DNA of 29,365 nucleotides, taken from IMG/VR virus record IMGVR_UViG_2693429774_000014. One strand, given 5' to 3'. Made by a program: the position numbers and the translations under genes. Source of the stretch: a virus. Taxonomy: Duplodnaviria > Heunggongvirae > Uroviricota > Caudoviricetes. The notes below the pieces were generated by a model. That model saw nothing but the letters and a program-made list of their open reading frames with translations. It did no database searches and was not told the DNA's origin. Below are positions 24,250-27,396 of the stretch, in pieces (position 1 is the first letter of the stretch; each line of letters starts with the position of its first letter).

Positions 24250-25164
24250 ATGGGATTGTTTACGACCCGCCAGTTACTCGGTTATACCGAACAAAAAGTG
24301 AAATTTCGTGCGCTGTTTCTGGAGCTGTTTTTCCGCCGTACGGTGAATTTCCATACCGAAGAGGTGATGCTGGACAAAATTACCGGAAAAACGCCGGTGG
24401 CGGCCTATGTCTCCCCGGTTGTTGAAGGAAAAGTGCTGCGTCATCGCGGTGGTGAAACCCGCGTGTTACGTCCGGGCTACGTCAAGCCGAAACACGAATT
24501 TAATTACCAGCAGGCGGTTGAGCGTCTTCCCGGTGAAGATCCGGCTCAACTGAACGACCCGGCCTACCGTCGTCTGCGTATCATCACCGATAACCTCAAA
24601 CAGGAAGAGCATGCCATTGTCCAGGTGGAAGAAATGCAGGCGGTGAATGCCGTGCTGTATGGCAAATACACCATGGAAGGGGATCAGTTTGATACTGTCG
24701 AGGTGGATTTTGGACGCTCTGAAGGAAATAACATTGAGCAGGCCGACGGTAAAAAATGGTCTGAGCAGGACCGTGATACGTTTGATCCGACGCATGATAT
24801 TGACCTCTACTGCGATCAGGCCAGCGGTCTTGTGAATATTGCCATTATGGACGGTACTGTCTGGCGTCTGCTGAATGGTTTTAAGCTGTTCCGCGAAAAA
24901 CTGGATACCCGTCGCGGCTCAAATTCACAACTCGAAACGGCAGTGAAAGACCTGGGGGCGGTGGTGTCTTTCAAAGGGTATTACGGCGATCTGGCCATTG
25001 TGGTGGCGAAAACGTCTTATGTGGCAGAGGACGGTACCGAAAAACGTTATCTGCCGGAGGGCACGCTGGTCCTGGGAAATACGGCTGCAGATGGGATCCG
25101 TTGTTACGGTGCCATTCAGGATGCGCAGGCGTTGTCCGAAGGTGTGGTGGCTTCTTCCCGTTAA
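24250..25164 (+). pseudogene. E: Lambda gpE-like major capsid protein, C-terminally truncated (304 aa versus about 341 in lambda)
   Basis: TTRQLLGYTEQKVKF..LFLELFFR...PGYVKPKHE...AIVQVEEMQAVNAVLYGKYTM...EKLDTRRGSNSQLETAVKDLG...LVLGNT resembles lambda gpE through ...AIQDAQALSEGVVASSR, then the frame ends and the following sequence is unrelated. Confidence 0.7.
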
Positions 25165-25314
25165 CGGTCCTGCGGTGGCGGATGAGTTCGACAACCCCAC
25201 CACGGATATCCGTAAGGACAGATGCAGCAAGTGCATGCGCGGGTGTGAGATGCGCGGCATGGTGGCTAATTTTGGCGGTTTCCTTTCCATTAACAAACTT
25301 TCGCAGTAAATCCA

Positions 25315-26058
25315 ATGACACAGACAGAATCAGCGATTCTGGCGCATGCCCGGCGGTGTGTGCCTGCGGAGTCGTGCGGCTTCGTGGTGAGAACGCCGGA
25401 GGGGGAGCGGTATATCCCTTGTGTGAATATCTCTGCAGAGCCGGAGGCGTATTTTCGTATTGCACCGGAAGACTGGCTGCGGGCAGAGATGCAGGGGGAG
25501 ATTGTGGCACTGGTCCACAGTCATCCCGGTGGTCTGCCCTGGCTGAGCGAGGCCGACCGGCGGCTGCAGATAAAAAGTGCACTGTCCTGGTGGCTGGTCT
25601 GCCGGGGGGAAATTCATAAATTCCGCTGTGTGCCACATCTGACAGGACGGCGCTTTGAGCACGGGGTGACGGACTGTTACACGCTGTTCCGGGATGCCTA
25701 CCATCTGGCGGGAATTGATATGCCGGATTTTGAGCGTGAGGATGACTGGTGGCGCAACGGTCAGAACCTTTACCTGGACAATATGGAGGCGACTGGTTTT
25801 TACAGGATTTCCCTGCCTTCCGCACAGCCTGGCGATATCCTGCTGTGCTGCTTTGGCGCATCGGTGGCCAATCATGCCGCCATATACTGCGGCAACGGTG
25901 AGCTGCTTCACCATCTGCCTGAACAACTGAGTAAACGGGAGAGGTATTCCGAAAAATGGCAACGACGAACGCATTCTGTCTGGCGTCACCGCCACTGGCA
26001 CGCATCTGCCTTCACGGGGATTTGCAACGATTTGGCCGCCGCCTCAGCCTGTATGTGA
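25315..26058 (+). CDS. K: Lambda gpK-like tail tip assembly protein (JAB/MPN plus NlpC/P60 domains, 247 aa)
   Basis: JAMM-type motif HSHPGGLPWLSEAD; C-terminal half has NlpC/P60-like Cys/His context (DCYTLFRDAYHLAGI...GDILL...HAAIYCGNGELLHH). Overlaps the gpI-like gene by about 100 nt, as K and I do in lambda. Confidence 0.7.
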   Translation: MTQTESAILAHARRCVPAESCGFVVRTPEGERYIPCVNISAEPEAYFRIAPEDWLRAEMQGEIVALVHSHPGGLPWLSEADRRLQIKSALSWWLVCRGEIHKFRCVPHLTGRRFEHGVTDCYTLFRDAYHLAGIDMPDFEREDDWWRNGQNLYLDNMEATGFYRISLPSAQPGDILLCCFGASVANHAAIYCGNGELLHHLPEQLSKRERYSEKWQRRTHSVWRHRHWHASAFTGICNDLAAASACM

Positions 26059-26729
26059 ACACGGCAGCGGAAGCCATTCGCGCCCTGTCGATGCAGATGC
26101 CGGGCTTTCGCCGTCAGATGAACGAAGGCTGGTACCAGATACGTATTGCCGGTGATGACACGGCACCGGAGGCGGTGTATGCCCGTCTTCACGAACAGCT
26201 GGGTGAGGGAACGGTCATCCACATTGTGCCGCGACTGGCCGGGGCCGGAAAGGGTGGACTGCAGATTGTGCTGGGGGCGGCAGCCATCGTGGGCTCTTTC
26301 TTCACGGCCGGAGGCTCGATGGCGTTATGGGGTACAGCCCTGAGTGCCGGTGGTTTTTCTGCCACCACGATGCTGTTTTCACTGGGGGCCAGCATGATTC
26401 TGGGCGGTGTGGCCCAGATGCTGGCCCCGAAGGCAAAAACACCGGATTACCGCGCAACGGATAACGGCAGACAGAACACGTACTTTTCCTCGCTGGATAA
26501 CATGATTGCCCAGGGGAACCCGATGCCGGTGCCTTACGGTGAAATGCTGGTTGGCTCCCGCCGTATATCCCAGGACATCAGTATTGATATGCCTGCCGGT
26601 CACGGTCACATGACGCTGGAGTTTTCGGTATCAGCATGGCTGGTGAATAACTGGTATCCCACAGCAAGTATCAGCGATTTGCTGGTTGTGGTGATGAAGA
26701 AAGCCACCGCAGGCATCAGTATCAGCTGA
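25956..26729 (+). CDS. I: Lambda gpI-like tail tip assembly protein with a non-lambda C-terminal extension (257 aa)
   Basis: LASPPLARICLHGDLQRFGRRLSL...WYQIRIAG...VIHIVPRLAGAGKGGLQIVLGAAAIVGSFFTAG...FSLGASMILGGVAQMLAPKAKTP...DNGRQNTYFSSLDNMIAQGN...YGEMLVGSR resembles lambda gpI; the last roughly 45 aa diverge. Confidence 0.75.
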   Translation: MATTNAFCLASPPLARICLHGDLQRFGRRLSLYVNTAAEAIRALSMQMPGFRRQMNEGWYQIRIAGDDTAPEAVYARLHEQLGEGTVIHIVPRLAGAGKGGLQIVLGAAAIVGSFFTAGGSMALWGTALSAGGFSATTMLFSLGASMILGGVAQMLAPKAKTPDYRATDNGRQNTYFSSLDNMIAQGNPMPVPYGEMLVGSRRISQDISIDMPAGHGHMTLEFSVSAWLVNNWYPTASISDLLVVVMKKATAGISIS

Positions 26730-26796
26730 ATTTTATAACCCATATACGGGCGCCAGAAATGGCGCCTTTTTTATTGCAGAAAAGCGAGAGGTAATT

Positions 26797-27396
26797 ATGC
26801 GTAAACTTTATGCCGCCATTTTGTCCGCAGCCATTTGTCTGGCCGTATCCGGTGCGCCTGCATGGGCGTCTGAACATCAGTCCACGCTGAGCGCGGGGTA
26901 TCTTCATGTCTCGACGAACGTTCCTGGCAGCGATGAACTGAACGGGATTAACGTGAAATACCGTTATGAGTTTACGGACACTCTGGGAATGGTGACGTCA
27001 TTCAGCTATGCAGGAGACAAGAATCGCCAGCTGACCCGTTACAGCGATACCCGCTGGCATGAAGATTCCGTGCGTAACCGCTGGTTCAGCGTGATGGCGG
27101 GGCCGTCTGTGCGCGTGAATGAATTGTTCAGCGCGTATGCGATGGCGGGTGTGTCTTACAGCCGTGTGTCGACTTTCTCCGGAGATTATCTGCAGGTGAC
27201 CGACAACAAGGGGAAAACGCATGATGTGCTGACCGGAAGTGATGACGGTCGCCACAGCAACACGTCTCTGGCGTGGGGAGCTGGCGTGCAGTTTAACCCG
27301 ACCGAATCCGTGGCCATTGATATTGCTTATGAAGGCTCCGGCAGTGGCGACTGGCGCACTGACGGTTTCATCGTGGGTGTCGGTTATAAGTTCTGA
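26797..27396 (+). CDS. lom: Lom (Ail/Lom/PagC-family outer membrane protein, 199 aa)
   Basis: Signal peptide MRKLYAAILSAAICLAVSGAPAWA. GINVKYRYE...SVMAGP...SAYAMAGV...IDIAYEGSGSGDWRTDGFIVGVGYKF matches the lambda Lom C-terminus. Strong AGAGG ribosome-binding site. Confidence 0.85.
   Translation: MRKLYAAILSAAICLAVSGAPAWASEHQSTLSAGYLHVSTNVPGSDELNGINVKYRYEFTDTLGMVTSFSYAGDKNRQLTRYSDTRWHEDSVRNRWFSVMAGPSVRVNELFSAYAMAGVSYSRVSTFSGDYLQVTDNKGKTHDVLTGSDDGRHSNTSLAWGAGVQFNPTESVAIDIAYEGSGSGDWRTDGFIVGVGYKF

Follow-up and report, generated by a model that had tools for sequence, protein, structure and literature searches.

Organization of the locus

The DNA analyzed was a stretch of 29,365 nucleotides from IMG/VR virus record IMGVR_UViG_2693429774_000014, referred to below as the window, and all positions given are those of this whole stretch. 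Judged from its sequence, the whole 29-kb window is the right-hand part of a lambda-like prophage of Escherichia coli with a Qin-type immunity region. Homologues of C, D, E, L, K, I, J and lom were found in the order of lambda, and the gaps between them match uninterrupted stretches of the intact E. coli MEI003 prophage. The element is very probably a defective lambda-like prophage whose near-MEI003 ancestor underwent three separate illegitimate deletions, with 2 bp of microhomology at each, and so lost about 15.4 kb of the morphogenesis region. The three joints are designated A, B and C from left to right.

The most likely source of the window is draft assembly GCA_001284905.2, contig CYDV01000024.1; exact protein look-up placed the window as the final 29.4 kb of this contig, reaching the contig end. 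The window starts inside the integrase gene, which in MEI003 adjoins tRNA-Ser, and the insertion site is predicted to be tRNA-Ser/mtfA.

The closest intact relative was the MEI003 prophage (NZ_CP071263.1, about 888-936 kb), located beside tRNA-Ser and mtfA. Its module is complete and follows lambda order (Nu1-A-W-B-C-D-E-FI-FII-Z-U-V-G-T-H-M-L-K-I-(sodC)-J-lom-stf). The first 24 kb of the window were about 99.9% identical to this prophage, in which about 4.2 kb of extra sequence is present; the first three blocks of Table 1 are contiguous in the window and are separated by 4,226 and 6,918 bp in MEI003. The early, regulatory and lysis regions and the head and tail-tip alleles were 99.4-99.96% identical over 26.6 kb with equal gene order, whereas the window is without 15.4 kb of the MEI003 morphogenesis set and carries another allele of the J 3' end and lom. 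A sequence-only reading of the window had attributed the missing morphogenesis genes to deletion. Alignment with lambda and with the intact prophage bears this out, giving three exact colinear breaks between flanks of 99.4-99.96% identity, and the three gaps explain all of the missing genes; the positions proposed in that reading were accurate within a few bases.

Two local departures from MEI003 were observed. Positions 26583-27310 (the 3' end of J with the 5' part of lom) hold an allele unlike that of MEI003 and matching the prophages of E. coli C325 and O145, which marks a mosaic boundary. The L'-K-I' segment is slightly more diverged from MEI003 (99.4%) than the remainder (99.95%). The MEI003 integrase is annotated as frameshifted; the window aligns to MEI003 without gaps but spans only part of the integrase.

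Lambda (NC_001416, nt 1-19585) shares the gene order, the 103-nt K/I overlap and the exact cosN 12-mer with the window. Lambda differs in being complete, in its cI/cro immunity, which is replaced here by the Qin-type dicA/dicC/dicB/DicF region, and in the annotation of K, which has a long form of 247 aa here.

Deletion A: fusion of Nu1 to C

At joint A, Nu1 nt 12 is connected in frame to C nt 61, and the resulting protein reads MATQ/PAYARVFF... across the break. The deletion comprises 4,226 bp, namely the rest of Nu1, A, W, B and C codons 1-20. The terminase and portal genes are missing because of it; their absence had been noticed in the sequence-only reading, and the deletion that accounts for it lies outside the interval given there. 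The head protease/scaffold gene C' now lies behind the ribosome-binding site and start codon of Nu1. The cosN site has been kept; it lies about 185 nt before the start of Nu1, in flanks that, by reading of the sequence, resemble the left end of lambda. A cos site upstream of Nu1 was identified by exact match of the cosN 12-mer.

Deletion B: truncation of E and remnant of L

The truncated capsid gene E' follows the intact E of MEI003 and C325 through 25163, which is nt 914 of 1029 in E; loss of lambda-like sequence had been placed at about 25164 from the letters alone. Its product was aligned with residues 1-303 of 341 of lambda gpE (60% identity) and with profile positions 1-288 of 329 of Pfam Phage_cap_E. 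The TAA stop (25162-25164) is created by joint B itself, and E therefore ends at residue 304 of 342.

Deletion B amounts to 6,918 bp in MEI003 coordinates and comprises the E 3' end, FI, FII, Z, U, V, G, T, H, M and L codons 1-184. E is joined inside the L 3' end, 151 nt upstream of K. The remnant of L was 73% identical to lambda gpL residues 185-232 and has neither a start codon of its own nor a promoter. The earlier description of E as joined near K, with FI through L absent, is therefore to be amended: FI through M and the first 184 codons of L are gone, but a 147-nt piece of L separates E' from K.

Deletion C: fusion of I to the J 3' end

K is intact, with 246 of 247 residues identical to K of MEI003. 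It is followed by the chimeric open reading frame (ORF) I'::'J, for which two starts are given. Read from the lambda-style ATG at 25956, the ORF shares 103 nt with K, which is also the overlap in lambda; the PGAP-style start is the GTG at 26055. The I part was 65% identical to lambda gpI residues 1-208 and follows I up to 26583, and the last 17 residues of I (TRDEGGDGKVVVIGRQA) are missing. Both I and J are broken at codon position 3, and joint C is in frame.

The last 48 residues of the chimera (IDMPAG...AGISIS) are not derived from I, and the stop at 26727-26729 is that of J. The J remnant of E. coli C325 ends in the same 48 residues. They also aligned to lambda J 1084-1131 (38% identity for the J C-terminus) and matched profile positions 86-135 of 135 of Pfam Ig_GpJ_C. 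About 45 non-lambda residues had been noted here in the sequence-only reading and had been proposed, as a guess, to be a J C-terminus fused in frame. Comparison with J proteins upheld the guess. Its further statement that J is absent holds for 1,110 of the 1,158 codons, but the final 48 codons and the stop survive.

Deletion C comprises about 4,235 bp in MEI003 coordinates, a size that is an estimate, since the right side of the joint differs in allele from MEI003. The I 3' end, the I-J spacer with sodC and the 1,110 J codons fall within it. Intact relatives carry sodC (Cu/Zn superoxide dismutase) on the opposite strand between I and J (as at 13608-14135 of L004), and the gene is not present in the window. 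If the parent had sodC, this cargo gene was probably lost rather than kept. Downstream of the 'J remnant lie the native J-lom spacer and lom.

Nature of the joints

The joints are known at the level of assembly, the source being a short-read draft. All three were found identical on one contig in NCBI assembly GCA_001284905.2 and on an independently built 6,860-bp Logan contig of ERR178178, which was unbranched. They were treated as real because of the 2-bp overlaps, the same path in the two assemblies and flanks colinear with known prophages. Among 5,426 complete E. coli genomes, 60-mers across the joints gave no match to any of the three, only one-sided partial matches, and exact look-up of the fusion proteins of joints A and C returned a single isolate (GCA_001284905.2, ERR178178).

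At each joint the parental blocks overlap by exactly 2 nt (AG, TA and TA, respectively), and every base of the window was assigned to some parent. Few shared bases, no inserted DNA and no insertion sequence (IS) or att site at the joints is the pattern of microhomology deletion. Deletion mediated by an IS or transposon was looked for, and no IS element or end and no extra sequence was present between the parental blocks at the three joints. Deletion or mis-joining through repeats was likewise not indicated, with just 2 identical bases per joint, unrelated flanks and no repeat of tens of bases.

By hand calculation under a simple model, at least 2 bp at all three joints would be expected in about 0.4% of cases for random joints; joining guided by microhomology would be expected to leave 2-bp overlaps at all three. 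Chance alone would give two or more in-frame joints out of three in about 26% of cases, and the two seen here are unremarkable. When the DNA around the seven parental break sites was folded, z-scores ranged from -1.7 to +1.3, with no support for hairpin-driven breakage. Chi-like octamers, pseudo-sites for invertases or resolvases and TA targeting of the IS630 type were considered by eye and set aside; no consistent orientation or motif and no element DNA was seen.

Table 1. Conserved blocks, genes, RNAs and deletion joints of the window
Feature	Positions	Strand	Description	Basis
Block 1	1-22362		99.946% identity to MEI003; 12 mismatches, 0 gaps	BLAST
Block 2	22361-25163		99.964% identity to MEI003; 1 mismatch in 2,803 nt, 0 gaps	BLAST
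Block 3 (L'-K-I)	25162-26583		99.37% identity to MEI003; 9 mismatches, 0 gaps	BLAST
Block 4	26582-29125		98.7% identity to J'-lom-stf of E. coli C325 and O145 prophages	
DicF	4403-4454	-	small RNA (sRNA)	Rfam
sok	11534-11708	+	antitoxin RNA, beside hokD	Rfam
tRNA cluster	15004-15253	+	three tRNAs downstream of Q	ARAGORN
STnc100	16024-16196	+	sRNA	Rfam
cosN	22156-22167	+	12-nt lambda cohesive end, GGGCGGCGACCT	exact match
Nu1::C	22351-23808	+	Nu1 codons 1-4 joined to C codons 21-501, 485 aa	Pfam Peptidase_S49; comparison with MEI003
Joint A	22361-22362		deletion junction, microhomology AG	comparison with MEI003
D	23845-24192	+	head decoration, intact, 115 aa	Pfam HDPD, 4e-24
E'	24250-25164	+	truncated major capsid gene, 304 aa vs 342	Pfam; lambda and MEI003 alignments
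Joint B	25162-25163	.	deletion junction, microhomology TA; E nt 914 to L codon 185	
'L remnant	25163-25309	+	final 48 codons and stop of minor tail gene L (Cys-rich C-terminus), 147 nt	
K	25315-26058	+	intact, 247 aa; JAB/MPN and NlpC/P60 domains	Pfam Prok-JAB and NLPC_P60
I'::'J	25956-26729 or 26055-26729	+	chimeric ORF; 257 aa (ATG) or 224 aa (GTG)	lambda and Pfam alignments
Joint C	26582-26583	.	deletion junction, microhomology TA; I to J codon -48	
'J remnant	26583-26729	+	final 48 codons and own stop of J, end of receptor-binding domain, 147 nt	
Hairpin	26748-26777	+	terminator-like G+C hairpin and T-run in J-lom spacer	consensus scan only
lom	26797-27396	+	intact 199-aa outer-membrane beta-barrel cargo	Pfam Ail_Lom 1-199/199, 1e-117
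Side tail fibre genes	27461-29045	+	437-aa protein, then 89-aa fibre C-terminal protein	Pfam; gene calls

Retained regions

The left 22.4 kb of the window are colinear with MEI003 and carry Q, holin, lysozyme and Rz. The Qin-type dicA/dicC/dicB/DicF immunity region is present and intact, and the regulatory and lysis genes are kept, as had been read from the sequence. In the MEI003 prophage the gene content includes dicB, ydfC, ydfB, dicA and dicC; hokD, Q and three tRNAs; and a SASA esterase, holin, lysozyme and Rz. Matches to Rfam in the window were DicF, sok and STnc100. The three tRNAs were called by ARAGORN as Met-CAT, Arg-TCG and Arg-TCT; the first is labeled tRNA-Ile in MEI003 by RefSeq.

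To the right of lom, the 437-aa fibre protein (27461-28774) was matched by the Pfam domains phage_tail_N, Collagen and Phage_fiber_C, with long collagen-like Gly-X-Y repeats in mid-protein (Pfam Collagen, residues about 251-309 and beyond). The window, and with it the contig, ends about 320 nt past the small fibre gene.

Comparable defective prophages

Comparable deletion wrecks are common among E. coli prophages. Independent analogues were an FI to J' deletion in the C325 and O145 prophages, a V' to L joint with a truncated J in Z1323CEC0014, an E' to 'lom joint in L010, and an A' to 'L joint together with an I' to 'J' joint in L024; the protein collection also held fusion proteins A::I, L::I, V::I and I::J::J'. 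The four analogues resemble the window in having clean deletions of the same module with 1-4 bp of microhomology. They are separate events rather than inherited joints, because the partner breakpoints, alleles and host strains differ.

In enterohemorrhagic E. coli, multiple deletions of morphogenesis genes are the norm in lambdoid prophages (PMC2669165). Most lambdoid prophages of O157 Sakai are defective in portal, head, tail or packaging, and many of them can still be induced and complemented by co-resident prophages (Asadulghani et al. 2009; PMC2669165). The Sakai Sp prophages resemble the present element in their deletions of packaging, head, tail and host-specificity genes, in the retention of regulatory, lysis and cargo genes, and in occurring several per genome (PMC2669165). 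The cryptic prophage Qin of K-12 shares the DicF/dicB immunity region; the decay in the window differs from that of Qin in being very recent, the flanks being about 99.9% identical to an intact relative.

Some breakpoints recurred. In L010 (Logan contig, SRR30334646, 3480-3495) E is broken at the same TA (nt 913-914) and joined to the 3' part of lom, giving an identical 304-aa E' product; this E' to 'lom joint was not found in the complete E. coli genomes, in which only one-sided partial matches occurred. In L024 (about 8440) and L026 (about 1715) the J remnant starts within 3 nt of joint C of the window, with 1-3 nt of microhomology. In the ORF of L024 (protein P0091) the I allele is lambda-like and the J allele is a different one, and the ORF of L026 (P0001) is I::J-internal::J'; the ORFs of the window, L024 and L026 all end with the last 48 residues of J. 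A further site, in I at L/HE(Q/T)LGEG (window about 26190), is the common right end of three deletion fusions (V::I, L::I and an unknown partner with I) and is shared by two tandem duplications. These cases (P0054, P0055, P0057, P0041 and P0043) come from unrelated contigs and were compared at the protein level.

On this basis the lambdoid head and tail genes may hold discrete hot spots of illegitimate recombination, arising from site-specific breakage or fork pausing, with one end fixed and the other variable, and the joints of the window may be one multi-switch event at such sites; we consider this doubtful. Several searches spoke against a strong hot spot. At all 120 IMG/VR sites sampled for the J allele, the 15 nt or more before the joint position were normal J sequence, and at one of the sampled sites (L109) unrelated sequence lay further upstream of the normal J. 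The joint-specific pattern for the J site had no match in IMG/VR. The same 19-mer gave 240 matches in metagenome and genome collections, none with J-like sequence downstream, but it was too short to be informative in collections of such size. Scanning IMG/VR for departures at E nt 915 yielded a synonymous single-nucleotide polymorphism only. Six contigs that end at E nt 912-914 had been candidates for a recurrent deletion and were rejected; the synonymous TAC to TAT change at nt 915 branches the assembly graph in genomes with two alleles.

Discussion

The course of events proposed for the window would be as follows. The ancestor would have been nearly identical to the intact MEI003 prophage, and three clean illegitimate deletions (A, B and C) would have removed the packaging, portal, tail and host-recognition genes. 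The route may have been RecA-independent, by replication slippage or template switching, or may have been microhomology-mediated end joining. Four points weigh against this account or restrict it. The two assemblies probably share one read set and would then be independent in software only. No intermediate with one or two of the joints was encountered among the 5,426 complete genomes or by look-up of fusions A and C. The allele to the right of joint C is unlike that of MEI003, so the direct parent would not have been MEI003-like there. Finally, the loss of function is predicted from gene content.

One alternative would be an assembly artefact, in which a chimeric contig had been made from several lambdoid prophages and the prophage were intact in the cell. 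The short-read draft source and the end of the window at a contig end would allow it, as would the frequent presence of several near-identical lambdoid prophages per E. coli genome (median of 4 places per genome) and the contigs of other genomes that break inside E. To mis-join, however, a graph assembler needs a shared repeat of k bases or more, and the joints share 2 bp; two assemblers agreed on an identical, unbranched 6.9-kb path across all three joints; and the breaks elsewhere at E nt 912-914 are explained by the common synonymous polymorphism at nt 915. An artefact is accordingly regarded as scarcely credible. One complex event, either serial template switching by one fork or end-joining repair of simultaneous breaks, deserves more weight, although it too is judged unlikely. 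The same polarity and colinear order of the joints and their exactly 2-bp overlaps (about 0.4% if random) would suit a single event, as would the missing intermediates noted above, and flanks about 99.9% identical to the intact relative leave little time for serial decay. Missing intermediates are weak evidence in a lineage sampled once, however, lone deletions of like kind are common in other prophages, and 1-4 bp of microhomology is typical of any illegitimate deletion. As no intermediate form was found and fusions A and C were limited to a single isolate, the three joints may have arisen together or in sequence. Joint C could also have arisen by illegitimate or mosaic recombination of the element's own I with the J'-lom-stf of an already truncated element of the O145/C325 type. 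Positions 26583-27310 are unmatched in MEI003 at megablast level and 98.7% identical to C325/O145, whose prophages already hold only a 327-nt J remnant. That remnant reaches 180 nt further upstream in C325, though, so that a new illegitimate joint at the same TA would be needed, and intact phages (L003) also often show mosaic alleles in the J 3' end and lom; such an origin of joint C appears rather improbable.

Three separate deletions being the preferred reading, there is the question of what the element can do. The window is without Nu1, A, W (the head-tail connector), B, FI, FII, Z, U, V, G, T, H and M, and E, L, I and J are truncated; loss and disruption of essential virion genes of this kind define a defective prophage. 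Of the genes for the tail shaft, tape measure and baseplate, only K is left. Heads presumably cannot be made, the terminase and portal being missing and the capsid protein truncated, nor presumably can tails, with Z, U, V, G, T, H, M, L and J lacking. If no heads or tails are produced, the chimeric ORFs would be scars and not new functional genes. Since cos, Q and the lysis cassette are undamaged, induction and lysis may still be possible, and in principle the element could be packaged only by means of a helper's proteins. The decay is recent, because of the identity of about 99.9% to an intact relative, and private to one isolate, without sign of selection; the same identity leaves no divergence from which selection could be measured. 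The sequence-only reading had called the prophage defective and domesticated. The first term is borne out by the essential genes lost; the second is not, since fusions A and C are confined to one isolate, none of the joints occurs in the 5,426 complete genomes and no sign of selection was seen.

Domestication would mean selected remodelling, with C'-D-E' and K-I'::'J' kept for the benefit of the host (for example as poison subunits against superinfecting lambdoid phages), or with the element serving as a satellite that bears cos and depends on a helper. In favour of this, reading frame is preserved at two of the three joints, leaving ORFs that can still be translated from native start signals; cosN, Q and the lysis genes are undamaged; and K is kept between deletions also in the independent wreck L024. 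The number of in-frame joints is, however, compatible with chance as calculated above, the single-isolate fusions offer no conservation pointing to selection, E' terminates at an accidental stop, and other wrecks are without K. No satellite hallmark genes were seen, although no search aimed at hijacking genes was made, and the window is colinear with a full-size lambdoid prophage except for the three deletions, which is not the constitution of a phage satellite of the phage-inducible chromosomal island (PICI) or P4 type. Such satellites are small (about 10-15 kb), have replication and helper-hijacking genes of their own and are natively devoid of structural genes. Lambda heads need roughly 38 kb for efficient packaging, and the remaining element would have about 33 kb by a rough estimate in MEI003 coordinates. 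Remodelling of this kind is therefore held to be very improbable.

The element adds one more recently decayed lambdoid prophage, in an E. coli background of pathogenic type, that could be documented base by base. For annotation, its 485-aa "S49 peptidase", 304-aa "major capsid protein" and 224-aa "tail assembly protein" are deletion scars and not new architectures. For calls of prophage completeness, it is an element that looks rich in phage genes yet would be unable to build particles. With regard to mechanism, it is a clean example of three microhomology joints whose intact parent is known with nearly single-base precision. Wider potential lies solely in the apparent reuse of breakpoints by independent events; if it reflected true hot spots in the head and tail genes, these would channel the decay of prophages.

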